A stretch of 64,000 bases of DNA from NCBI GenBank assembly GCA_016932575.1, contig JAFGCO010000011.1, positions 108,321-172,320 of the forward strand. The letters are read 5' to 3'. This stretch comes from a bacterium. GTDB lineage: Bacteria > Zhuqueibacterota > QNDG01 > JAFGCO01. The notes beneath the pieces were generated by a model that searched no databases, was not told the origin of the DNA, and saw nothing but the letters and a program-made list of their open reading frames with translations. This document shows positions 822 to 46,197 of this stretch, in pieces; position 1 is the first letter of the stretch, and each line of letters starts with the position of its first letter. The position numbers were made by a program, and so were the translations under genes.

Positions 822-1697
822 CTATATGCGTTTATATTTTTTTCTGAACCGGTACCGTATCCAGATTGCCACGGTATTCATCAGAAGAATCAAAACGATT
901 AAAATAAATGCGGTTCCATAGGCCAGCGGCCGTACCTTGACAATCTCATGATGCTGCGTGGACATGATAAACAGATGATAGGGAAGCGCCATAAACTGTT
1001 TAAAAAGCGCATCCGGAAATTTCGGCAGGATGGGCCAGAAAAACGCAACTCCCGTAAACAGAATGGGGGCTGTTTCGCCCGCGGCGCGCGCCAATCCTAA
1101 AATGGTTCCGGTCAGCATGCCCGGCACGGCATAAGGAAGCACATTGGACCGGATGGTCTGCCACTTGGTCGCGCCTAATGCCAGTGCGCCTTCCCGGTAA
1201 GACATGGGAACGGTTTTTAAAGCCTCTTCACTGGCCGTGATGGTCCAGGGCAGGGTCAGCAGACCCAGAGTCAGCCCGGAAGACAAAACCGACAATCCGA
1301 AATTCAGCATCAATACAAAGAGTGAAAAACCGAACAATCCATAAACGATGGAAGGAACCCCGGATAAATTACGAATGGCCAGGCGGATGAGCCGGACAAT
1401 CCGGCCCTGGTGAGCGTATTCATTCAGATAAATAGCAGCAAACATCCCGATCGGCACGGAAAATATCACCGTGACCAGACTCACCCAGAATGTGCCGACA
1501 ATGGCCGGCCAGATGCCCCCTTCTGTCATGCCTTTGCGGGGCTTATCCGTAACAAACTCCCAATTAACCGAACTGATCCCTTTGGAGACAATATCATAAA
1601 TGATAAAAAACAGGATAAATATCACGACCAGGGTCGCCAGCCGGAGAACCGAGAATCCCAGTTTCTCATTCATTTTTTTCCAGTTTATTTTCATCAT
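822..1697 (-). CDS. pstA: phosphate ABC transporter permease PstA
   Basis: 291-aa polytopic membrane protein of the PstA/PstC permease type; start overlaps pstC stop by 4 nt. Confidence 0.88.
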   Translation of the reverse strand: MMKINWKKMNEKLGFSVLRLATLVVIFILFFIIYDIVSKGISSVNWEFVTDKPRKGMTEGGIWPAIVGTFWVSLVTVIFSVPIGMFAAIYLNEYAHQGRIVRLIRLAIRNLSGVPSIVYGLFGFSLFVLMLNFGLSVLSSGLTLGLLTLPWTITASEEALKTVPMSYREGALALGATKWQTIRSNVLPYAVPGMLTGTILGLARAAGETAPILFTGVAFFWPILPKFPDALFKQFMALPYHLFIMSTQHHEIVKVRPLAYGTAFILIVLILLMNTVAIWIRYRFRKKYKRI

Positions 1698-2614
1698 CGG
1701 TTCACCTTCTGGTATTTTTCCAAAACAAGATCCGAAATCAGATTGACAAAAAAGGTCATCAGAAACAGAATAAATCCGATAACAAACAGCGAGCGATAAT
1801 GAATACCGCCCTGGACGGTTTCTCCTAATTCGATCGCGATGGTTGCGGTCATGGTGCGGATGGAATCGAGAAAAGAATGCGGCATGGCCGGTGCGTTTCC
1901 GGTTGCCATGAGGACTGTCATGGTTTCACCAATCGCACGTCCCATACCCAGCATCACGGCGGCGATAATTCCGGACATGGCCGACGGGATGGTCACCCGG
2001 ATCAGGGTCTGCCATTTGTTGGCGCCCAGTGCCAGTGAAGCATTTTTGTATTCCTGAGGAATAGAAAGAATGGCATCTTCCGAAATACTGATAATGGTGG
2101 GAAGCGCCATGACGGCCAGCAGAATGGATCCATTGATGGCATTAAGCCCGTTTGAGGTTCCAAAAAGTCTGGAAAGAAGCGGACCTACCACAATAATTCC
2201 CAGGAATCCCACGACAACCGACGGGATGCCGGCTAAAACCTCGATCACCGGTTTAATGACTTCACGCACCCTGGGAGGGGCGACATCCGCAATATAGGCA
2301 GCTGTGGCAATACCGATGGGCACAGCGATCAGCAGCGCGCCGAATGTCACCATGAGGGTGCTGATCAGAATGGAAAGGATTCCGTACGATTCCTGGACGA
2401 ATGAAGTGGGATTCCATTTTGTGCTGAAGAAAAATGATTTCAATCCTAATGCTTTAAACGCAGGGAAACCCTCGATAAAAAGCAGGGAAAAAATCCCCAT
2501 CAATATCAGCACAGCCAGCATTCCATGCACAAGAAAAAATTTCTCGATCACCTGTTCCTTGAGCCGCCGCCACCAGACCGGTGTTTGATGTAATTTATTT
2601 TTTTTCAGTTCCAT
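1694..2614 (-). CDS. pstC: phosphate ABC transporter permease PstC
   Basis: 306-aa polytopic permease paralogous to PstA, positioned between pstS and pstA. Confidence 0.88.
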   Translation of the reverse strand: MELKKNKLHQTPVWWRRLKEQVIEKFFLVHGMLAVLILMGIFSLLFIEGFPAFKALGLKSFFFSTKWNPTSFVQESYGILSILISTLMVTFGALLIAVPIGIATAAYIADVAPPRVREVIKPVIEVLAGIPSVVVGFLGIIVVGPLLSRLFGTSNGLNAINGSILLAVMALPTIISISEDAILSIPQEYKNASLALGANKWQTLIRVTIPSAMSGIIAAVMLGMGRAIGETMTVLMATGNAPAMPHSFLDSIRTMTATIAIELGETVQGGIHYRSLFVIGFILFLMTFFVNLISDLVLEKYQKVNR

Positions 2615-24197: not shown

Positions 24198-26261
24198 TTA
24201 CGATGACTTCTTTTCAAAAATCGGCAAAATCACCGAAAAACTGGTCCCCTTCCCTGATTCACTTTCAACTTGAATATCTCCCCCATGCTGGTCAATAATA
24301 CGGCGGCAAATGGCCAATCCCATACCCGTCCCCTTTTCTTTGGTCGAATAAAACGGCTGAAATATTTTTTTCAGATGATCGGAATGAATACCAATACCCG
24401 TATCGGAAACAACAATCTGAATCTGGTCGCTCGAATCGACATCTGTCCGTTTATTAGAGGATACCTGCAAAGTACCGCCGCTCTCCATGGCATCCAGACT
24501 GTTCAGGACCAGATTGGTAAACACTTGTTGAATCTGATATCTGTCCAGCCACAGTTTTGGCAAATCATCATTCAGATTCTCTACCCATTTAACTTTTTTA
24601 TTATTGTTCACCTCTTTATATCTTTTGACAACATCCCTGATTACCTGATTAATTTCGACTTCCTCAAATGAGGGTGGCCGGGGACGAGCAAATTGCAAAA
24701 AATCCTCAATAATGGCAGCCATTTGATCGGTTTCTTCCTTGACCACACACAATAACTGTTGTCCCTCATCCGAAAGCTGTGATTCATCCTGCAACAATCC
24801 CACAGATGTTTTAAGTGCGACCAGAGGATTTCGAATCTCATGCGCAATTCCAGCAGAAAGTTCACCGATTGCAGCCAGCTCTTCACTACGGTAAAGTCTA
24901 CGCTCCAACTCCCTCTGATTGGTCATATCAATTAATGAAACCAGCGTCTGTTGTGTGCCGGGAATTGCAGTACTGCTCATATGAATCTGCAGGGTATGCC
25001 CGTCACGATTCACAAACTCTGTCTCAAAATGGCCTGTTTTCGCCGAATTCGAAAATTTCACTTTTCTGTTTTCTGATTTCAAAAAAAGATCCAGAGTCCG
25101 TTTGCCAATCAAATCCTTGCGCTTATAGCCACAGAGCTTTTCAAATGCACAATTAACCAGCTGAAAACACTGCCTCTGATCAATAATGGCCAGACTGGGG
25201 CCTGCAGATTCAAACAGATTCCGATATCGAACTTCCGACTGCTTCGTCTCTTCATACAGACGGGAATTTTCAATGGCAATAGTCGTTTGTTCAGCGATAC
25301 TCACCAATGCTTTAATCGTTCCTTCATCAATGGATTGATCATGACAGAAAAACGCGGCCATCACTCCCAAAGCCTGTTTTCCACTGATAATCGGAACAAA
25401 AGCGACACTTTGGACCTTCAGACTGTTCAGCCATTTTTTATAAGGTTCATCCGATACATCTTCGGTAAAATGAAATATAAGGGGTTCCTGTAAAATCAAT
25501 GTCCGGCCAACTGGATTCTTGGATCTGGCTGTCATTGAATATTTAAGACCGAGAGACTTTGTCTTTAAACCAATACCAAAACCGGCACGTCCCTCAATCA
25601 ATTTGGCTTCGTCATTCACCATACCGATCCAGGCGCCGTCAAAACCCAGTGATTGGACCACTACCTTCGCCAAATTTTCCAGTACCGTATTTAAATGGTC
25701 GATTTTCTGTGTAACCGTAATCGCCCGGCTGACAGCAATAAATCGTTGGGCACGGAGCGCTGCCTCTTCATAAATTAAGCTGTTATAAATGGCCTGGCCT
25801 AAAATTTCACCCGTCTCTAACAATAACTGCTGTTCTTCAGTCTTGAATGTTCGTGCCACTCGTGTGTATAATCCCAGTACGCCTACCAGTTTACGTTTCT
25901 GTACAAGGGGAATACCGGCATAAGATACTAAATTTTCTTTTTTAATAATTTTAAAAGGAATTCCGCATTTTGAATCTAATGCATCGATAAAAAGAGGCGT
26001 ATTATTTTTGGCAATCTGTCCCGCCAATCCCTCTCCCATTTGAATAACACCGACACCAACCATGTCAGGCGATAGGCCCCTATGGGCTTTTATGGTCAGC
26101 AAATGGGCATCCGGCTCATAAATCAATATTTCTGCAGCCGGAATATTAAATATCGGGAGCAAATCATCTAAAGCGCTATGTAAAATCTCATCCAGTTGCA
26201 GACTTTGCTGCACTGACACTGCAATATTGTTTAGATTTTTATAATAATCGTCGATTTGCAT
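24198..26261 (-). CDS. GAF-domain sensor histidine kinase
   Basis: 687 aa; GAF/PAS-like N-terminal modules, H-box AGIAHEIRNPL, HATPase G-boxes DTGIGI / GTGMGLAI. Confidence 0.9.
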   Translation of the reverse strand: MQIDDYYKNLNNIAVSVQQSLQLDEILHSALDDLLPIFNIPAAEILIYEPDAHLLTIKAHRGLSPDMVGVGVIQMGEGLAGQIAKNNTPLFIDALDSKCGIPFKIIKKENLVSYAGIPLVQKRKLVGVLGLYTRVARTFKTEEQQLLLETGEILGQAIYNSLIYEEAALRAQRFIAVSRAITVTQKIDHLNTVLENLAKVVVQSLGFDGAWIGMVNDEAKLIEGRAGFGIGLKTKSLGLKYSMTARSKNPVGRTLILQEPLIFHFTEDVSDEPYKKWLNSLKVQSVAFVPIISGKQALGVMAAFFCHDQSIDEGTIKALVSIAEQTTIAIENSRLYEETKQSEVRYRNLFESAGPSLAIIDQRQCFQLVNCAFEKLCGYKRKDLIGKRTLDLFLKSENRKVKFSNSAKTGHFETEFVNRDGHTLQIHMSSTAIPGTQQTLVSLIDMTNQRELERRLYRSEELAAIGELSAGIAHEIRNPLVALKTSVGLLQDESQLSDEGQQLLCVVKEETDQMAAIIEDFLQFARPRPPSFEEVEINQVIRDVVKRYKEVNNNKKVKWVENLNDDLPKLWLDRYQIQQVFTNLVLNSLDAMESGGTLQVSSNKRTDVDSSDQIQIVVSDTGIGIHSDHLKKIFQPFYSTKEKGTGMGLAICRRIIDQHGGDIQVESESGKGTSFSVILPIFEKKSS

Positions 26262-26278
26262 ATATAATTTGATTTTTC

Positions 26279-26854
26279 TTAGGATATATATTTCGGTAAA
26301 AATAATCCGCCGGAGAGTGCTCCTATCACCCAGACACCGAATACCATCGCAAATCCGACCACGATTAAAAACAGAATTTTGTTTTTCAGGGATAGAAAAT
26401 GAACCTCTACCCCATGATAGAAAATGTACAGACCGAAAAGTGAAATAATTGGCACAAGAACGCCCAGAAGTGGATTGACATAAAGCACTCCCACCATGAG
26501 CAGCGGTAAAAAACTGAAAAATGATAATTGCATGCCTATTGTCTCATCGATTTCTGTCTCAAAAAGAATGGCCAGTATATGAATGAATTTACCGATGCCT
26601 GCCATCAAGGCCAGCAGAAGTATATACCATACAAACGCCTTGAGAAGTGCTGCTCCGAACTGCCAATATCCCCAGCACAGGAATCGTGCAATGGCCGACG
26701 GCAGAGCCCAGACAGCCATTTCTCTGATCACTTTCCATTCATCTTCCGGAGTCTGGAGCTGAGACCATGTCTGTGATGGATTTTTATAAAAAGCAATTAA
26801 TTTCAGACACACATCGCGATACTGACTGATCGTCTGATATATAAACGAAGCCAT
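26279..26854 (-). CDS. small polytopic membrane protein (Yip1-like?)
   Basis: ORF with 4-5 TM helices; start moved to first ATG (M9) at 26854. Confidence 0.5.
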   Translation of the reverse strand: MASFIYQTISQYRDVCLKLIAFYKNPSQTWSQLQTPEDEWKVIREMAVWALPSAIARFLCWGYWQFGAALLKAFVWYILLLALMAGIGKFIHILAILFETEIDETIGMQLSFFSFLPLLMVGVLYVNPLLGVLVPIISLFGLYIFYHGVEVHFLSLKNKILFLIVVGFAMVFGVWVIGALSGGLFLPKYIS

Positions 26855-35442: not shown

Positions 35443-36405
35443 CTATTCCTTATAGAATCCAATTTTACCGTATTTTTCAACACGCTGATTGACCAGCTGC
35501 TGTGGCGTTAATTTGCTGAGCTGATTGAGATGCAGCCGGATGCGTTCTTTGACAATTTGAGCTGCTTTATCATAGTTACGGTGTGCACCTCCCATCGGTT
35601 CCGGAACCACTTCGTCAATAACACCGAGCTCCAGTAAATCAGAAGCTGTTACCTTCAACATCTCAGCAGCATGAGGAATCATTTCAGATGGATTTTGTTT
35701 CCATAGAATGGCTGCACAGCCTTCAGGAGAAATGACAGAGTACCAGCCGTTTTCCATCATCAGAATCCGGTCTCCCATGCCAATGCCCAACGCCCCTCCT
35801 GAGGCACCTTCTCCGATAATCACTGCAACAATGGGCACTTTTAAATGAGCCATTTCAAACAAATTTTTTGCAATAGCTTCACCCTGGCCCCTTTCTTCTG
35901 CACCCAAACCGGGATAGGCACCCATTGTATCAATCAGTGATATCACGGGTTTATTAAATTTTTCCGCCAATTTCATTAAACGTAAAGCACGGCGGTATCC
36001 TTCCGGATTCATCATTCCAAAATTGCGATGCAGCTTTTCTTTTGTGGTTCTGCCCTTTTGCTGACCGATAACCATCACAGGCTTTCCATCCAGTTTAGCC
36101 AGTCCGCCGACCATGGCCGGATCATCAGCAAAATGCCGGTCTCCGTGCAATTCCACATAATCAGTAAACATCCGCTCGATATAATCCAAGGCATAAGGTC
36201 GATCGGGATGGCGGGAAAGCAAAACACGCTGCCATCGGGTTAATTTTGCATACGTGTCGACCATCAATTTATTTAACTTTTGCTCAAGACGATGAATTTC
36301 TTCGTCCATATTGATATTTTCCGAGACCGAATAAGCTTTCATCTCGGCAATTTTCTTTTCAAGCTCAACAATTGGTTTTTCAAATTCCAGTGTGTAACCT
36401 GACAT
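35443..36405 (-). CDS. accA: acetyl-CoA carboxylase carboxyltransferase subunit alpha
   Basis: AccA-type sequence throughout; start moved to ATG at 36405 (M8), the track start is TTG. Confidence 0.9.
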   Translation of the reverse strand: MSGYTLEFEKPIVELEKKIAEMKAYSVSENINMDEEIHRLEQKLNKLMVDTYAKLTRWQRVLLSRHPDRPYALDYIERMFTDYVELHGDRHFADDPAMVGGLAKLDGKPVMVIGQQKGRTTKEKLHRNFGMMNPEGYRRALRLMKLAEKFNKPVISLIDTMGAYPGLGAEERGQGEAIAKNLFEMAHLKVPIVAVIIGEGASGGALGIGMGDRILMMENGWYSVISPEGCAAILWKQNPSEMIPHAAEMLKVTASDLLELGVIDEVVPEPMGGAHRNYDKAAQIVKERIRLHLNQLSKLTPQQLVNQRVEKYGKIGFYKE

Positions 36406-36562
36406 ACCGTCTCCCGCATTAACCAAACCAATATAATATAAGGAATTGAATCATAAGATCAAAGAAAAAGAGACTGATGAGCCCTGCATATAAAAGGAAC
36501 GTATTTATGGATGTCATATGAGGATTAAAGCAGTAACGATAAAATTGATATCTCTTCGATGG

Positions 36563-38497
36563 TTATGCTCGAAAAAACGCTTTAAGAAGGATTTCTATAT
36601 CCAGAAAAATCGAATAATTTTTCATATAATAATGTCTGTATTTCATTTTCTCTTCATCGGTCAGCTGCTTGGAACGGTGAATCTGGACCATACCGGTTAA
36701 TCCGGGTTTGAAGCCCATAGGGGCCATATCTGGTTCGAACGGGATCATTTCTGTACCAACGACGCTCATCTGCCCAAAAAGAATCGGAATTATCAAGAAG
36801 AGAATTTGCACCAGACCATGCATTTTCTTCTCCCGCCTCCAAACCTGAATAATCAACAATTTCTGTCCCATACCATTTGATATATACTCTTTCTGAAACC
36901 GTAATCCCGGTGCGACAAGAATCCATAAACCGGTGATCAAGGAAAAAGGTGCAAGAACAATCACCCACACCAGATCGAATAATCTTTTAAACAACAGGTT
37001 CCATCCCTGAAAAATGGGATAATCCAGATCCATCAATGCGATATCATCAAAAGTATCCACATTTGAATGCCCGATCAGTACATCCATTTGACGCGGAACC
37101 ATCTTAAAATCCAGATGTAAATCCTTTCCCCGGCTCATGAGTTTTAAAATACGGTTATAGCTGACTGATTCTGCAGGAAAAATCACTTCATGAATACGAT
37201 GGGCCACAGCCACACGCTCGATATCTTCAAGGCTCCCCAGAAGCGGTACAGATTTCACTTTCACATCTTTTTCAGTCGCTTCATCAAGAGAAACAACGCC
37301 GACTACCTCATAGCCGGTATCAGGATGTCGTCGCAGGTTTTTAAGAATACGTTGACTTGCACTGCCTGTGCCCACAACAATAACCCTGCGATTGACCATG
37401 GACCGGCCCAGTCTGCTGAACAGAACAAACCGGCTTTTTTGGGTGGCAATACGGATCATAAAGCGCCATCCGCTTAAAAAAACAGCATCCAGGAATGCTG
37501 CGATCAACAGCACTGCCCGGCTGAACTGATATTCCGGAAGAAAAAAAGTTACCGACGTATTCAAGACAAACCCGAAGAAAACAGCACCGATGGCATTGCT
37601 GACACTCACCAGGCTCCGGCGGTAAAGTCCCATGCCCCAAAAACAACCCAGCCAGATCGTGGAATAGATCACATTGACCCAACCATATCTTGGCCAATAA
37701 GCGGGATTTTTCAACCAGACAAGAATCGCGATGAAAAGTCCGATTTGAAGAAAAAGCAGATCAATAACCGGTACGAATATCCGTTGAAAAAGGTGTGATA
37801 AAAAACCAATCCCTCCGCGAAGCCAAATACCGATCATTAAAAACCATTGCGGTAAAAACGCCCATCCTGATTGAAAGTGTTTACGTACAAAAAGCTGCAT
37901 GGCTCCGTAAAAAATACGCAGATTATCAAAGGGTGCTTCATTTGCGCTGCGCCCTTTGTAATGGATGATCTGAGTGGTTGGCAGATAGATAATTCTCCAT
38001 CCTGTTTTGCGTATCCGGTAGCACCAATCCAGATCTTCACCATACAAAAAAAATTGTTCATCTAATAATCCGGCTTCATCCACTGCTTTTTTACGAACAA
38101 ACATGAATGAACCGGAGATGGCTTCCACTTCGGTTGTATCATCAGGATCAAGATAGGTTAAATTATACCGGCCGAATAACCGGCTTTTCGGAAAAAGCCT
38201 GTTCAAACCTATCGCTTTCGTGAATCCGACCCATGGCGTCGGATAACTACGCCGGCAGGCCAGCTGCAGGCTGCCGTCAGGATTGAGAATCTTACATCCC
38301 GTCATACCGACTTCAGTATGGGCCTCCATATAATTCAGACACACCCGGAATGTGTCCTCACGTACCAGAGTATCAGGATTAATCAGACAAATATATTTTC
38401 CTGTTGCTGTTTTTAAAGCCTGATTATTGGCTTTTGCAAATCCTAGATTTTCTGAATTGGTAATGAGTTGAACCGTACGAAACCGCTTCCGGACCAT
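36563..38497 (-). CDS. bifunctional GT2 glycosyltransferase / polyprenyl glycosylphosphotransferase (bacterial sugar transferase) fusion
   Basis: N-terminal GT2 (YGEDLDWCYR), central TM region, C-terminal sugar-transferase domain (PGLTGMVQIHRSKQLTDEEKMKYRHYYMKNYSIFLDIEILLK); see start-codon anomaly in findings. Confidence 0.7.
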   Translation of the reverse strand: MVRKRFRTVQLITNSENLGFAKANNQALKTATGKYICLINPDTLVREDTFRVCLNYMEAHTEVGMTGCKILNPDGSLQLACRRSYPTPWVGFTKAIGLNRLFPKSRLFGRYNLTYLDPDDTTEVEAISGSFMFVRKKAVDEAGLLDEQFFLYGEDLDWCYRIRKTGWRIIYLPTTQIIHYKGRSANEAPFDNLRIFYGAMQLFVRKHFQSGWAFLPQWFLMIGIWLRGGIGFLSHLFQRIFVPVIDLLFLQIGLFIAILVWLKNPAYWPRYGWVNVIYSTIWLGCFWGMGLYRRSLVSVSNAIGAVFFGFVLNTSVTFFLPEYQFSRAVLLIAAFLDAVFLSGWRFMIRIATQKSRFVLFSRLGRSMVNRRVIVVGTGSASQRILKNLRRHPDTGYEVVGVVSLDEATEKDVKVKSVPLLGSLEDIERVAVAHRIHEVIFPAESVSYNRILKLMSRGKDLHLDFKMVPRQMDVLIGHSNVDTFDDIALMDLDYPIFQGWNLLFKRLFDLVWVIVLAPFSLITGLWILVAPGLRFQKEYISNGMGQKLLIIQVWRREKKMHGLVQILFLIIPILFGQMSVVGTEMIPFEPDMAPMGFKPGLTGMVQIHRSKQLTDEEKMKYRHYYMKNYSIFLDIEILLKAFFRA

Positions 38498-38650
38498 TGC
38501 CTGACTGCCATCCGTAGATGCATTGTCTACAACAATAATTTCGGAAGGGATACCTTTTAGTGCCTTGACAATTGATTGAATCGCCTGCTCAAGATAGGAT
38601 TTAACATTGTAATTGACAATAATAACGGATATGTCATTGGAACGCGCGAT

Positions 38651-39376
38651 TTATAACCTCCCCAGGATACTGAGAAAACGCAGTTTCCATACCATCCAGG
38701 CCGCTTCACTCACTATGCCTGAATGCATCTTTGAACTCCCTATATTGCGGTCTACAAAAATAATAGGAATTTCTTTCAGTCGGAATCCGTGCTTCCAGGC
38801 TTTAAAGCTCATTTCAATTTGAAAGGCATAACCGTCAGAATGAATATCATTCAAATTAATATTTTCCAGCACACGCCGATGATAACATTTGAATCCACCG
38901 GTCGCATCCCGAACCGGCATGCCCGTGACAATCCGGGAATAAAGATTGGCAAACCAGGAAAGAAGCAGACGCGACATGGGCCAGTTCACCACATTGACAC
39001 CCTTGATGTAACGGGATCCCAATATAAAATCGTACTGATTAATAATTTTCAAGAAATTAGGAATTTCATTCGGATCATGAGAAAGATCGGCATCCATCTG
39101 AAATATTATCTGATAATCATGTTCCAGAGCATATCGAAATCCTTCTACATAGGCGGTTCCAAGCCCCAATTTACAGGATCGTTTGAGTAAATGCGTTCTC
39201 GACGTCTTTTTGCACCAGCGTTCGACGATTTCGGCTGTCCCATCCGGAGAATTATCATCGACGACCAAAATTTCTATCGCCGGTTCCTGCTGTAAAACCA
39301 GGGGAATCACCTTCTGGATATTCTGTACCTCGTTATAAGTCGGAATAATAACAAGGATGGAATCACTTTTTTGCAC
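38651..39376 (-). CDS. GT2 polyprenol-phosphate glycosyltransferase (Dpm1/GtrB/ArnC-like)
   Basis: 241 aa; ILVIIPTYNE...VVDDNSPDGT...QMDADLSHDP. Confidence 0.8.
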   Translation of the reverse strand: MQKSDSILVIIPTYNEVQNIQKVIPLVLQQEPAIEILVVDDNSPDGTAEIVERWCKKTSRTHLLKRSCKLGLGTAYVEGFRYALEHDYQIIFQMDADLSHDPNEIPNFLKIINQYDFILGSRYIKGVNVVNWPMSRLLLSWFANLYSRIVTGMPVRDATGGFKCYHRRVLENINLNDIHSDGYAFQIEMSFKAWKHGFRLKEIPIIFVDRNIGSSKMHSGIVSEAAWMVWKLRFLSILGRL

Positions 39377-39396
39377 GGGTCTGCCGTTTTATTATT

Positions 39397-39870
39397 TTAT
39401 GGTTTTTGGGGGATTTTACTGCCGGAGTTCCTGAAATCCAACAATTTCTGCTTCAATTCATCGTCTTGAAGCGCCAGAATCTGAACGGCTAAAATTGCCG
39501 CGTTTTTTGCACCGGCCTTGCCAATGGCTACAGTTGCCACAGGAATACCCGGAGGCATCTGAACAATGGAACAAAGCGCATCCAATCCGCTCAGAGGTGA
39601 AGCATCCAGAGGCACACCAATGACCGGAAGCACAGTCTGAGCGGCTACAACTCCGGGAAGATGTGCTGCCATGCCCGCACCGGCAATAATAACACCATAG
39701 CCCTTGTTTTCTGCCGAGGTGGCAAATGCTGTTACTTTATCCGGATCCCGATGGGCAGACATCACATAAACTTCATAGGGAATACCAAAAAAATCTAAAG
39801 CATCGGCGCAAGCCTGCATGACCTCTTCATCAGAGGTGCTGCCCATTAATATTGCTGCCTTTTTTACCAT
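39397..39870 (-). CDS. purE: 5-(carboxyamino)imidazole ribonucleotide mutase PurE
   Basis: 157 aa; PurE sequence (ILMGSTSD, SAHRDP, AGMAAHLPGVVAA); SD AAGGA. Confidence 0.9.
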   Translation of the reverse strand: MVKKAAILMGSTSDEEVMQACADALDFFGIPYEVYVMSAHRDPDKVTAFATSAENKGYGVIIAGAGMAAHLPGVVAAQTVLPVIGVPLDASPLSGLDALCSIVQMPPGIPVATVAIGKAGAKNAAILAVQILALQDDELKQKLLDFRNSGSKIPQKP

Positions 39871-40296
39871 GAATTTATTCCTTATCTGACACGGATATTT
39901 GGATTCATATACTTAATCGATTTTATCTGACGAAAATGAAAGATAAAAATAATCATCCCACTCTTTTTGATTTTTCAATCTTAAATACAACAGATCAATC
40001 GGTATTATCGGAAATTCACCCCTCATCCTCTCTTCCAAATAATCTTTCCTGAAACATGGCTCATCGAATAAACTGGCGGGAAAACAGACTGACCCGCCTG
40101 AAAATTACCATGCCGAAGACAGATAAACGGGAACCTGATGAATATCATCAGCACTAAAAACCTGCCAAAGTTCAGTATTTCATCAAGAATCGTGATAAAA
40201 AAATACAAAATATTTGGACTGCATGCAATAATAAATATGAGACTCTGGTCCACAACATATACACAACCGCAGTGTATAATACTCACATGTATTCGT

Positions 40297-41325
40297 TTAT
40301 TCCGAATCAAACTGGGTGCGAAATGTCTCTGCAATAACCTCCATTCGCCGCAGATAAGGCAGCTTTTCTTTACCCGGGGCGAATAATGCGATATCAATCA
40401 TATAAATCCGTTCTGTTACTGCATCGTAAAATGTATAATTCTTAAAAGGTCCGCCTGCTGCCTCATCCACATGCTCCCATAATCCGGCAGTGATTAATGC
40501 AGGCCGACCCCTGAAAGAACCTTCATGCGAAAAAAGATACCGGTCAGCAACCTGTTCTGAAAAATCCTTATAATAGGTTCGGCCAATTCGATTTCGCTCT
40601 TGAACAACCCATGCCTGATTGAGCAAAGAGATGTCACCGTTGTCTATCCATCGAATAAAAATCCATCGGTCCGGTAAAACCCGCCGCATCCATATAAAGT
40701 TATCGGCAGGAAAAGCTTCTGCTATAAAATAATCTTTCTGTATTCGCAGAGTCCAGCCGTAATTATCCATTAAATCTGTCTCAAGTTTCCTGTTTTCTCT
40801 GCCCTCTAACACCTCATCCGTAAGATAGCGCTCCATTTCTTTATGCATCAAATCATACAGCATAATCGAATGGTTTACAATCTTATCATGCAACGCGGTA
40901 ATATCGTTGCTTACCAGAATCATCATTACTTGATTTCTGGCCCATTCATTTTTCTTGAGGAAAACAAAGTTCTCTCCCTGTTCGATACTTTTCCGCAATG
41001 AAGGATCAACGGTTACATTTCGAATCATATCACCAATGCGGCCTTCTGAACGCAATGTGGATGCCACGATTAAAAAATGCGCACGGCTGTAATAATCAAT
41101 CAGGGAATCAGGCACGTGACGACATTTGAACCGATATTCCTTCTGAGGTGTTCGTACTACCTTTTCAAAAGTCGATCGCAGGGCGCCCTGAATGCCTTCC
41201 CAATCTTCATCTTCTGCCATAACGGAAATGACGCCCTCCTGCCACAGACTCCTGGGTTTTGGACTGCAATGATGAAATATGAGGAGACAAAGCACAAACA
41301 GGATCGATCGTATTAAAGTTCGCAT
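40297..41325 (-). CDS. hypothetical secreted protein
   Basis: 342-aa ORF with N-terminal signal peptide inside the glycosylation operon; family not confidently assigned. Confidence 0.6.
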   Translation of the reverse strand: MRTLIRSILFVLCLLIFHHCSPKPRSLWQEGVISVMAEDEDWEGIQGALRSTFEKVVRTPQKEYRFKCRHVPDSLIDYYSRAHFLIVASTLRSEGRIGDMIRNVTVDPSLRKSIEQGENFVFLKKNEWARNQVMMILVSNDITALHDKIVNHSIMLYDLMHKEMERYLTDEVLEGRENRKLETDLMDNYGWTLRIQKDYFIAEAFPADNFIWMRRVLPDRWIFIRWIDNGDISLLNQAWVVQERNRIGRTYYKDFSEQVADRYLFSHEGSFRGRPALITAGLWEHVDEAAGGPFKNYTFYDAVTERIYMIDIALFAPGKEKLPYLRRMEVIAETFRTQFDSE

Positions 41326-43434: not shown

Positions 43435-46197
43435 TTAGGGAAGCATATCGGCTGTCGATCCGGTCGTGGTGTCATTTCCCATGAGCCTCATTAAAGATTC
43501 CAGCTCTTTTTTCGCATTGGGATCACCCGGATTCTGTTGCAGCCATTCTTCCAGAAACGCAACAGCGCGCTCATATTGACCGGATTGTCTATATAGGTAA
43601 AACAATTCTGACTGTGTACGCATATCATTGGGATCATCCTCTATCAATTCATTGAGAACCTCTTCAGCATAGTCGTACATTCGAAACACATAAGCCGCAT
43701 AGCTGGCTGTTTCCCGGGTTTCCTGTTTTGATTTGATACGGCCAGGAATTACATTTTTAATTCTTTCTTCGATATCGACATCCATACCCAGATCGCGTGC
43801 CACCTTATTCAGCAACATTGCTGTCAACTCACTGGGATAATAAATTTTTTCTGGAGGCATGAGCTCATCCATGGTCTGATATACCTCGACTGCCAGGTCT
43901 CTCTCACCTTCACTCTGATAGGTCTGCGCCAATCGAATAAACGCGGATCGATAATTACCCAGCAATTTTAAAATATTGGTATTTAAATGGACCGAAGGAT
44001 CATTCAGCCCTCGATACTGATATTTTTCCAAAATGTTTCTGTGCAACACATCCGGATTGACATTGTCATTCACTTCGTACGGCATCACCCGAAAAGCCAG
44101 CCCGTCCATACGTAAATAAGAATCCAGATTGATCATATTATTATTGGCCACTGTAACAGCAAAATACACAGGTCGCTGCCACATGTTGTCATACAAAATT
44201 CTAAGAATCATTAAATCCTGCACCCGAAGCACCATCGGATTATTCTCAGGATACGTGGGCTCCAGCCTGAACGTGATTTTGTCAGGAATGCCTTCGAGTA
44301 TTTTCTTGCGTTCGTTCAGTTCCATGGTTTTGGATGCATCCCGCTGATTTTGATCCGTTCCCAAAAGCGCATCGGCTTCACGCTCCCGGATTTGCGGCGG
44401 TACCGGAATGGAAATATCCTGGGATTCCCACTGACGGTAATTGATCTCATCAATTTCCCTGTTTTTCAAGCGTATGGGTACTTTAGGTTCTTCATCACGC
44501 AATTGATAAATATACCAGGGCGTATTCAGCAGGGACAAATTTACAACCCGGACATCTTTCCGAATACCCTCCACTTCCTGCAGGTACCAAAGCGGGAACG
44601 TGTCATTGTCACCGTTTGTAAAAATTATGGCATTGGGTTCACAAGTTTGAAGAATGTTATAAGAATAATCATAAGCGACATAATTGCCGGACCGGTTATG
44701 TGATTCATAATTAAATGCGATCAGATTCACCGGAACGATAATGAGAAGAATGATTGTAACAAGCCCAAAAATCGCCTTTTTAAGCGCAATTCTATCCTTG
44801 ACCGCTTCTGAAATCCATTCCAGAATGCCTGCCATGCCGATACCGATCCAGAGTGCAAAAGCAAAGAAGCTGCCGACATACGAATAGTCACGCTCCCGGG
44901 GCTGGGGGTCGGGCTGGTTCAAATAGATAATAATGGCATATCCGGTAATCAGAAAGAACACAAGAACAGCGACTGCCCGTTTCCAGTCCCTGCTGAAATG
45001 GTGTACCGCACCCCAGACACCCACAAAAAAAGGCAAGCCGTACAATCCGCGCACACTGATAATATCGACCAGACGGTCGTGATAATCCATCGCAATGCCT
45101 TTGCCGATAAACTGCCAGCCGAAATAACGAGTATACATCATCTGTATCTGATAATTCCAAAAATCGGCTTTGCGGTATAAAAATGTCAGGAGCATGCTCT
45201 CCTGACCATACTGTTTCCTTCCAAGGTAATCCATCATCGCCTGAAACGTGGATGGATTATTTTCATTGATCGGCGGATTCATACCCGCACGAACATAGAT
45301 CATGAGATACGTTGAATATCCGACAATAACGAGTACGGGTAAAACCCACCAGGCGGCAAAAGCTTTCCGGTCTTTATAGTACATATACATAAGGGTGATA
45401 ACGACCCAAATGCCGCCAAACCATTTCAGAAAATTCCAGGCTTGAGCCTGGTGCTCGAGCATGTTTACACCCATTTTTTCAGGATCGTACTGATAAATCA
45501 GAATGTATAAAGTGATCGGTACAATGCCCTGAATAATAATCAGCATTAACAAATTGCGTACAGATTGATTATGATGAAAATAGGCAATAAGCAGCACAAA
45601 AGGAAATGCCAGAATATTCAGTAAATGGACGCCTGCGGCCAGACCGAAAAGATAGAAAATAAAAAAGATAAGCAACATGCTTCCCGTTTTTTCAGAGCGC
45701 TCGCCCCATAACAGGGCCAGCCAGATGACCAGTGCCGTGAAGAATATGGAAAATCCATAGACCTCAGCTTCAACTGCATTAAACCAGTGGCTGTCCGTAA
45801 ATGCAAAGGCCAGGGCGCCGAACAATGCACTTCCGTACATGATCCAGAGATCCTCCCAGGTCCTGGCTTCGCCCCGCCAGCGGCGGATCAACTGAACGAT
45901 AATTAAAAAAGTCAGGAACACTGTAGCCGCACTGATAAAAACCGTAAACATGTTTACTCTCAGACCAATATCCTCAAAAAAGGGCAGCATGGTCATGATC
46001 CGTCCGATCAGCAGATAAAGAGGCGCACCCGGGGGGTGAATGACACCGAGAATATATGATGACGCGATAAATTCGCCACAATCCCAAAATGAGGTGGTCG
46101 GCGCAACAGTGCTGTAATACACCAAAAAGGAAATGATAAAAACCAGCCCGCCAAAAATATATTGTATGCGACGATTTAAAGATTCAACGAATTGCAT
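43435..46197 (-). CDS. DUF2723-type GT-C fold membrane glycosyltransferase with C-terminal TPR repeats (PMT/ArnT/TMTC-like)
   Basis: 920 aa; N-terminal FWDCGEF...HPPGAPLY, about 11 TM helices, large periplasmic loops, C-terminal TPR-like helices; SD GGAGG. Confidence 0.7.
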   Translation of the reverse strand: MQFVESLNRRIQYIFGGLVFIISFLVYYSTVAPTTSFWDCGEFIASSYILGVIHPPGAPLYLLIGRIMTMLPFFEDIGLRVNMFTVFISAATVFLTFLIIVQLIRRWRGEARTWEDLWIMYGSALFGALAFAFTDSHWFNAVEAEVYGFSIFFTALVIWLALLWGERSEKTGSMLLIFFIFYLFGLAAGVHLLNILAFPFVLLIAYFHHNQSVRNLLMLIIIQGIVPITLYILIYQYDPEKMGVNMLEHQAQAWNFLKWFGGIWVVITLMYMYYKDRKAFAAWWVLPVLVIVGYSTYLMIYVRAGMNPPINENNPSTFQAMMDYLGRKQYGQESMLLTFLYRKADFWNYQIQMMYTRYFGWQFIGKGIAMDYHDRLVDIISVRGLYGLPFFVGVWGAVHHFSRDWKRAVAVLVFFLITGYAIIIYLNQPDPQPRERDYSYVGSFFAFALWIGIGMAGILEWISEAVKDRIALKKAIFGLVTIILLIIVPVNLIAFNYESHNRSGNYVAYDYSYNILQTCEPNAIIFTNGDNDTFPLWYLQEVEGIRKDVRVVNLSLLNTPWYIYQLRDEEPKVPIRLKNREIDEINYRQWESQDISIPVPPQIREREADALLGTDQNQRDASKTMELNERKKILEGIPDKITFRLEPTYPENNPMVLRVQDLMILRILYDNMWQRPVYFAVTVANNNMINLDSYLRMDGLAFRVMPYEVNDNVNPDVLHRNILEKYQYRGLNDPSVHLNTNILKLLGNYRSAFIRLAQTYQSEGERDLAVEVYQTMDELMPPEKIYYPSELTAMLLNKVARDLGMDVDIEERIKNVIPGRIKSKQETRETASYAAYVFRMYDYAEEVLNELIEDDPNDMRTQSELFYLYRQSGQYERAVAFLEEWLQQNPGDPNAKKELESLMRLMGNDTTTGSTADMLP

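Follow-up and report, generated by a model that had tools for sequence, protein, structure and literature searches.

A conserved stop-adjacent ATC codon as the probable start of a bacterial GT2/sugar-transferase-like gene

A gene whose conserved N-terminus lies in frame but is preceded by no canonical start codon raises a simple question: where does its translation begin? We address this question for a large gene encoding a GT2, CoA_binding_3 and sugar-transferase-like protein in a 64-kb stretch of bacterial DNA (64,000 nucleotides of contig JAFGCO010000011.1, assembly GCA_016932575.1; hereafter the window), where it follows a Dpm1-like GT2 gene; all features of the junction between the two genes are on the minus strand (Table 1). 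The upstream open reading frame (ORF; 39376..38651) ends with CTG GGG AGG TTA TAA, and reading past this TAA in the same frame, with no spacer, gives ATC GCG CGT TCC AAT GAC ATA TCC GTT ATT ATT GTC AAT TAC AAT. As the initial annotation of the window had noticed, the GT2 N-terminus is encoded in frame upstream of the first ATG at 38497, the frame runs back without a canonical start to the TAA of the upstream gene, which shares it, and a GGGAGG precedes the ATC by 6 nt. All of this is borne out: PF00535 matches from its first profile position at residue 8, none of the 51 codons between TAA 38653-38651 and ATG 38497-38495 is ATG, GTG or TTG, and the GGGAGG is found at 38662-38657 with the ATC at 38650-38648. 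The in-frame translation from the ATC to the codon before the ATG reads IARSNDISVIIVNYNVKSYLEQAIQSIVKALKGIPSEIIVVDNASTDGSQA. By chance alone, 51 codons without a canonical start are not very improbable; it is because of homology and of conservation in relatives that we judge the feature real. Comparison of the sequences suggests that the large gene probably starts at this ATC.

Read from the ATC, the extended protein (695 aa) scores 87.3 bits with PF00535, for which the gathering cut-off is 23.3, and its residues 8-120 align to profile positions 1-115; Pfam matches to CoA_binding_3 and then to the C-terminal half of Bac_transf follow this domain. Solved GT2 structures in the PDB align from residue 7 (e.g. 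3bcv, residue 7). Since both the Pfam and the PDB alignments begin there, the GT-A fold starts upstream of the first canonical start. The public gene call, MBN2102978.1, covers 36563-38497 only (644 aa) and is without the first ~45 residues of the fold. Orthologues have been called with five differing truncated N-termini (MNYNVKS, MALNGISSEV, MIRKRFP, VVDNAS and MVRKRF); across the clade the public calls are short by 11-54 residues, with five wrong starts giving proteins of 644, 689, 667, 642 and 656 aa, and what they leave off the GT-A domain is its first strand-helix-strand together with the Asp region that binds the nucleotide.

We searched for homologues of both proteins and retrieved the contigs that carry them, which yielded nine distinct lineages, assembled independently, that share the junction. 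They are the window itself (an NCBI metagenome-assembled genome, MAG), L096 (NCBI GCA_016930535.1), L099 (Logan), L001-3 with L093 (ENA, Logan and JGI), L007 with L095 (ENA and JGI), L004-6 (ENA and JGI), L009-10 (ENA), L008 (JGI) and L098 (JGI). In the seven full-length lineages, the large-gene proteins are 61-86% identical and the ORF measured from the ATC has 693-700 codons; synteny is kept from DUF4837 through purE, the Dpm1-like GT2 gene and the large gene to accA. The ATC is invariant in all nine lineages, 6, 7 or 9 nt downstream of GGGAGG or AGGAGG, and in every one of them exactly five variable codons follow it before I-[ST]-[VI]-I-I-V-N-Y-N. Six further lineages have the architecture of the window, with TTA, CTA, CTC or TTG as the last leucine codon of the upstream gene and five different tails after the ATC (AHPYD, TRPLK, KHQPD, VPPIH/VPPVN and ASRPD), so that TAA abuts ATC in seven of the nine. 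L096 reads GGG AGG TTA, TAA, a single C and then ATC, which leaves the two genes out of frame with each other, and L098 reads AGG AGG TTG, TAG, ACC and then ATC. A pattern scan of metagenome DNA for N-Y-N-V-K-S-Y-L-E-Q-A returned three loci only, two of which are lineages already in the set, and a scan of genome contigs returned only orthologues of at most 53% identity, the ATC clade being absent from the 80 loci kept.

This recurrence bears directly on whether a start codon has simply been lost from the record, through a mistake in sequencing or assembly or through the recent deletion of 1 nt, translation really starting either at the out-of-frame ATG at 38637-38635 or at a canonical start that the assembly lost. 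One added base would indeed turn ATG-AC-ATA-TCC into M-x-I-S-V-I-I-V-N-Y-N, and L001 shares this ATG. However, it is absent from seven of the nine lineages, and nine assemblies made independently and drawn from four data sources (NCBI, ENA, JGI and Logan) all have the start-less layout, so that we give an error a practically negligible probability. A programmed frameshift was also considered and rejected, as the frame of the window is unchanged across the junction and the +1-frame ATG at 38637 is not conserved.

Evidence for a role of the ATC comes from codon usage between lineages whose synonymous sites are near saturation (proportion of synonymous differences, pS, 0.54-0.95). Our codon alignments cover both genes in the seven full-length lineages; a second version has six. 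In the seven-lineage alignment, the amino acid is invariant and has three or more codons in 244 columns, and the codon is also invariant in just 7 of these, 3 of which are the GGG, AGG and ATC of this junction. Of the 32 columns with 3-fold degenerate amino acids (seven lineages), and likewise of the 35 invariant isoleucine columns (six lineages), only that of the junction ATC keeps one codon throughout. For glycine and arginine, 2 of 41 and 1 of 27 codons are invariant in the six-lineage alignment, each count including the codon of the Shine-Dalgarno (SD) motif. GGG and AGG are the rarest glycine and arginine codons in both genes, and both are invariant at the SD motif. In L098, the upstream protein ends in Arg-Arg-Leu in place of Gly-Arg-Leu with GGAGG retained, which argues for selection on the RNA motif and not on the amino acids. 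In these alignments, the ATC codon is conserved beyond the need of its amino acid.

Downstream of the ATC, the extension falls into two parts. Codons 7-51 have a proportion of nonsynonymous differences (pN) of 0.04-0.16 against the pS of 0.54-0.95, and the ratio of nonsynonymous to synonymous substitution rates (dN/dS) is at most 0.12 where computable; because of these low values we consider codons 7-51 to be translated. In codons 2-6, pN is close to pS: their length is fixed at 15 nt in all nine lineages while the sequence evolves freely, and they would be either an unconstrained tail or a spacer. The alternative that translation truly starts at the annotated ATG at 38497, downstream of a decaying remnant of 51 codons, and gives a truncated and possibly GT2-inactive protein, agrees with the choice made in MBN2102978.1 and with like choices by gene callers in the P0004-P0008 lineages. 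It is at odds with the strong purifying selection on the 45 codons directly upstream (dN/dS at most 0.12 in all computable pairs), and no SD motif precedes this ATG. Its product would be without the first 44 profile positions of PF00535 and the equivalents of residues 7-50 of the GT2 structures. Moreover, the methionine is not a conserved start, since L008 has leucine (CTC) in its place. We therefore regard a start at 38497 as extremely improbable.

The differences between the junctions are as informative as their shared elements. Insertions or deletions occur immediately 5' of the ATC (1 nt in L096 and 3 nt in L098) and not 3' of it, which is the pattern expected if the ATC is the first codon. 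In eight of the nine lineages there is no ATG, GTG or TTG between the upstream in-frame stop and the conserved domain, the exception being L096. There (L096:3698-3720; GCA_016930535.1, JAFGGN010000042.1) the 1-nt insertion opens the frame to an upstream GTG 5' of the SD motif, which overlaps the upstream gene by 20 nt and exists because the upstream protein has a Ser-Val pair there; it is at that GTG that the public call (702 aa) begins.

Programmed readthrough of the TAA, giving a three-domain fusion of the Dpm1-like GT2, the second GT2 and the sugar-transferase-like domain, would account for two ORFs in the same frame with a stop adjoining the ATC in seven of nine lineages, and L098 is also in frame. 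Yet the insertion in L096 breaks the frame while the downstream ORF stays intact (695 codons) and the ATC and SD motif are kept. Because the ATC persists in out-of-frame L096 and in L098 behind TAG and 3 nt, the mechanism that is conserved is not readthrough. Eight of nine lineages stop at UAA, which leaks least among bacterial stop codons, the best 120 hits and the 80 genome loci (all ~690 aa) include no fused homologue, and readthrough would leave the conserved SD motif unexplained. We consider it very unlikely. The alignment with orthologues that the initial annotation had called for shows separate genes and no fused homologue; all orthologues, including ~75 distant ones, are two genes of ~240 and ~690 aa, which speaks equally against a longer gene having recently been split by a nonsense mutation. 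Among the four explanations originally offered, non-canonical initiation thus stands, with strong comparative evidence for ATC as the codon, and readthrough, a recent split and sequencing error fall away. Judging from the alignments, the start-less layout is a real conserved feature, neither an error nor a pseudogene nor a split gene.

The outgroups explain why the two genes share a frame at all. Distant orthologues (at most 57% identity) occur in KSB1, Calditrichota, Ignavibacteriota and Bacteroidota MAGs, and almost all have an ordinary ATG 1-3 codons before [DE]-[IL]-S-V-I-I-V-N-Y-N. The nearest outgroups with canonical starts (L011:2995-3003, L013, L015 and L094) have either stop-NNN-ATG (+3 nt, in frame) or a stop, seven codons and ATG; those with G-R-L-stop-NNN-ATG in frame have weaker SD motifs (such as GGGAGA and GGAAGA). 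The shared frame follows simply from the stop-NNN-ATG spacing, which makes it older than the ATC clade, and, being inherited from that ancestral spacing, it does not point to fusion. In a likely course of events, the ATG disappeared, the stop-adjacent ATC took over initiation and the SD motif grew stronger. Start-codon choice seems unusually varied in this gene family. One independent orthologue (L039:2550-2625, Bacteroidota MAG SMAG_U15477, DATJGD010000015.1) is also without a canonical start, with CTG at the usual methionine (CTG GAT CTC TCT GTT for M-D-L-S-V) and GAGG 5 nt upstream; seen in one genome only, this CTG may represent another near-cognate start in the family, or else a fault of the assembly. 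In four distant orthologues (L048, L050, L057 and L060), TTG is seemingly the sole canonical start near the N-terminus.

If the ATC is the start, the initiator tRNA would read AUC and the protein would begin with formylmethionine (fMet), as fMet-Ala-Arg-Ser-Asn-Asp-Ile-Ser-Val-Ile-Ile-Val-Asn-Tyr-Asn, the predicted N-terminal peptide being (M)ARSNDISVIIVNYNVK. The near-perfect SD motif in the last codons of the upstream gene would position the ribosome 6 nt upstream of the ATC, and ribosomes terminating on the Dpm1-like gene would restart at the ATC, a translational coupling by termination-reinitiation. Such a restart is plausible because the stop touches the ATC or lies at most 3 nt away and the SD motif is within the last codons of the upstream gene. 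Termination-reinitiation operates at stop-start distances of about -8 to +10 nt (PMC10666635; PMC12548453), and the spacers of 0, 1 or 3 nt observed here are inside this coupling range (PMC10666635). Initiation at AUC has been confirmed in Escherichia coli by mass spectrometry of the N-terminal methionine (10.1101/063800). On whether the two genes are translationally coupled, the evidence leaves us evenly poised. We infer that, owing to the weak codon, little of the large membrane enzyme would be made compared with its Dpm1-like partner. A stricter version, in which AUC works only via reinitiation after the abutting UAA, with the ribosome held by the SD motif and largely bypassing the proofreading of de novo initiation by initiation factor 3 (IF3), is a tentative idea that we find doubtful. 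If true, the large protein would be strictly slaved to the translation of its Dpm1-like partner at a fixed low ratio, and nature would offer, at this junction, an example of obligate reinitiation on a non-canonical codon that is stable in evolution.

Several points weigh against a coupled start at the ATC. Codons 2-6 evolve neutrally, so their translation is not independently supported; AUC is a poor start in E. coli, with 1-2% of the output of AUG (10.1101/063800); the in-frame GTG of L096, seven codons upstream of the ATC, could serve as the start there; and no conserved RNA structure that would enforce coupling was found at the junction with RNAalifold, which gave -9.2 kcal/mol only and no covarying pair. 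A start at the next AUH codon (AUA, AUU or AUC), the isoleucine at codon 7 (ATA 38632-38630), is an alternative; in that case, the 15 nt behind the ATC would go untranslated, as a spacer over which a ribosome scans after termination. The lack of amino-acid constraint in codons 2-6, the presence of an AUH codon at position 7 in every lineage and the canonical orthologues, which begin only 2-3 residues before codon 7, all favor it. However, codon 7 encodes the first beta-strand isoleucine or leucine in all orthologues, so that protein constraint accounts for its identity, and lineages differ in having ATA, ATT or ATC there, in contrast to the upstream ATC, which is the same in all. The SD motif would sit 24 nt away, and both the invariant ATC and a 15-nt spacer of fixed length despite free sequence change in nine lineages would be left unexplained. 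We think a start at codon 7 unlikely and retain the ATC as the probable start. The TATAAA that overlaps the stop was also considered as an internal promoter or as the source of a leaderless transcript, and this was rejected, as a sigma-70 scan found no site and two lineages have TGTAAA.

Table 1. Positions of the junction features and of the two genes in the window
Feature	Position	Strand	Remarks
Upstream gene, Dpm1-like GT2	38651..39376	-	NCBI name polyprenol monophosphomannose synthase, MBN2102979.1
Shine-Dalgarno motif GGGAGG	38657..38662	-	In the final Gly-Arg codons of the upstream gene; ATC follows after 6 nt
TAA stop of the upstream gene	38651..38653	-	Directly abuts ATC
ATC, proposed initiation codon (AUC, would be decoded as fMet)	38648..38650	-	Invariant in 9/9 lineages
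Five unconstrained codons A-R-S-N-D, proposed N-terminal tail	38633..38647	-	15 nt in 9/9 lineages, sequence free
Out-of-frame ATG	38635..38637	-	+1 frame, 26-codon ORF; only in the window and the L001 lineage
45 conserved codons (ISVIIVNYN...VVDNASTDGSQA)	38498..38632	-	First strand-helix-strand of the GT-A nucleotide-binding domain
First canonical ATG, start in the public annotation; internal methionine	38495..38497	-	Leu (CTC) in L008
Proposed full coding sequence, GT2 / CoA_binding_3 / sugar-transferase-like	36563..38650	-	695 codons from ATC plus stop

The two genes belong to a longer conserved neighborhood. The order LPG_synthase_TM, DUF4837, purE, Dpm1-like GT2, GT2/PGT-like, accA, 4HBT thioesterase, Trm112p-like and PEPCK (window 35443-41325) is conserved in L001-L012, L096 and the window, from the ATC clade out to orthologues of ~55% identity. 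The upstream gene has a start problem of its own. Its public product MBN2102979.1 (235 aa, MLVIIPTYN...) has the ATC at 39358-39356 as its only possible start (window 39356-39376, minus strand), with a GTG (39376) six codons upstream; its relatives all have a GTG or TTG 5-7 codons before I-L-V-I-I-P. The NCBI annotation has probably taken an ATC start wrongly in the upstream gene and missed the right one in the large gene.

At the other end of the large protein, the match to PF02397 (sugar transferase, PGT) spans profile positions 94-175 of 179 only (window 36566-36985, minus strand; the C-terminal ~140 aa). PglC aligns to this C-terminal part over its residues 105-180 only, conservation is not recognisable in the N-terminal half of the domain, where PglC carries its catalytic Asp-Glu dyad, and the 'GPRP' usual in the PGT domain reads 'GTEM'. 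The sugar-transferase domain may be catalytically degenerate across the whole family, as far as its sequence goes.

In the rest of the window, an SD-like 4-mer is found at -16 to -4 of the first canonical start in at least 15 of the 40 long ORFs, compared with an all-ATG background of 6.8%, and GGAGG or AGGAG precedes the first canonical start in 9 of 40, compared with 1.1% for all ATG triplets. The organism uses SD-led initiation. TAA is the commonest stop (24 of the 40 long ORFs). No other start-less gene was found among these 40 ORFs, and a genome-wide relaxation of start-codon use, considered as an explanation, is unsupported within this 64 kb. The only other long start-less leaders, of 94 and 76 codons at 24198-26543 and 822-1925 (both minus strand), have junk-like translations and appear to be ordinary intergenic regions. 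The only other GGAGG-ATC opening a long ORF in the window, at 45843, is an internal isoleucine. An Rfam scan of the whole 64 kb gave no family at gathering score, and no tRNA, rRNA or riboswitch was detected.

A conserved ATC start at this gene joins a known rarity, the non-canonical AUH starts, and reveals no new mechanism. Natural AUC starts make up 0.004-0.024% of annotated starts (PMC5499595). Few have been verified, and the one proposed here is kept by purifying selection across synonymous-saturated lineages. What is unusual is the clean comparative evidence, with an invariant ATC, a maximised SD motif and a stop-adjacent position across nine lineages. The junction would make a good natural test case for the upkeep and compensation of weak start codons and for the acceptance of non-canonical codons by reinitiating ribosomes. 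The truncated calls amount to a systematic annotation error that would mislead structure prediction and functional inference.

Among known systems, recoding of the prfB type relies on an SD-like element placed shortly before an in-frame stop, and the strong internal SD motif a few nucleotides before the stop recalls it. In contrast to prfB, the window needs no frame change and has no slippery context, and the spacing between stop and ATC varies among lineages, so that the resemblance is superficial. Closer parallels are the termination-reinitiation pairs (Huber et al. 2019, PMC6728339; PMC10666635; PMC12548453), which are likewise co-directional, spaced by 0 to +3 nt and with the SD motif inside the upstream 3' end; the +3 spacing of our outgroups is that of galT/galK and rplK/rplA (PMC10666635; PMC12548453). 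The described pairs use ATG, GTG or TTG, mostly in -4 or -1 overlaps, whereas here the codon is ATC and the coupling is one that we infer.

Near-cognate AUH starts selected to limit or regulate translation are found in infC, which encodes IF3 (AUU, AUC or AUA), and in E. coli pcnB (AUU) (PMC5499595; 10.1101/063800). In infC, an IF3 autoregulatory loop uses the start codon as its sensor, whereas nothing suggests such a loop for the glycosyltransferase. In Enterococcus faecalis ebpA, mutagenesis and reporter fusions established an ATT start (Montealegre et al. 2015, PMC4447247), and, as in our case, the annotated ATG lies downstream (by ~120 bp) of the real rare AUH start, which has a proper ribosome-binding site. 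This rare codon reduces expression and is kept within the species (PMC4447247); it differs from ours in being ATT and in its range, one species as opposed to lineages at 61-86% protein identity. The ATC start of Deinococcus dnaA was shown by TMPP N-terminal proteomics (Baudet et al. 2010, PMC2830850). That system concerns another gene in another phylum, with proteomic proof where we have comparative evidence, and neither a stop-adjacent position nor coupling was reported for it (PMC2830850). As in the junction described here, a natural ATC start is kept among related species, and re-annotation of heterogeneous wrong N-termini restores a conserved one.

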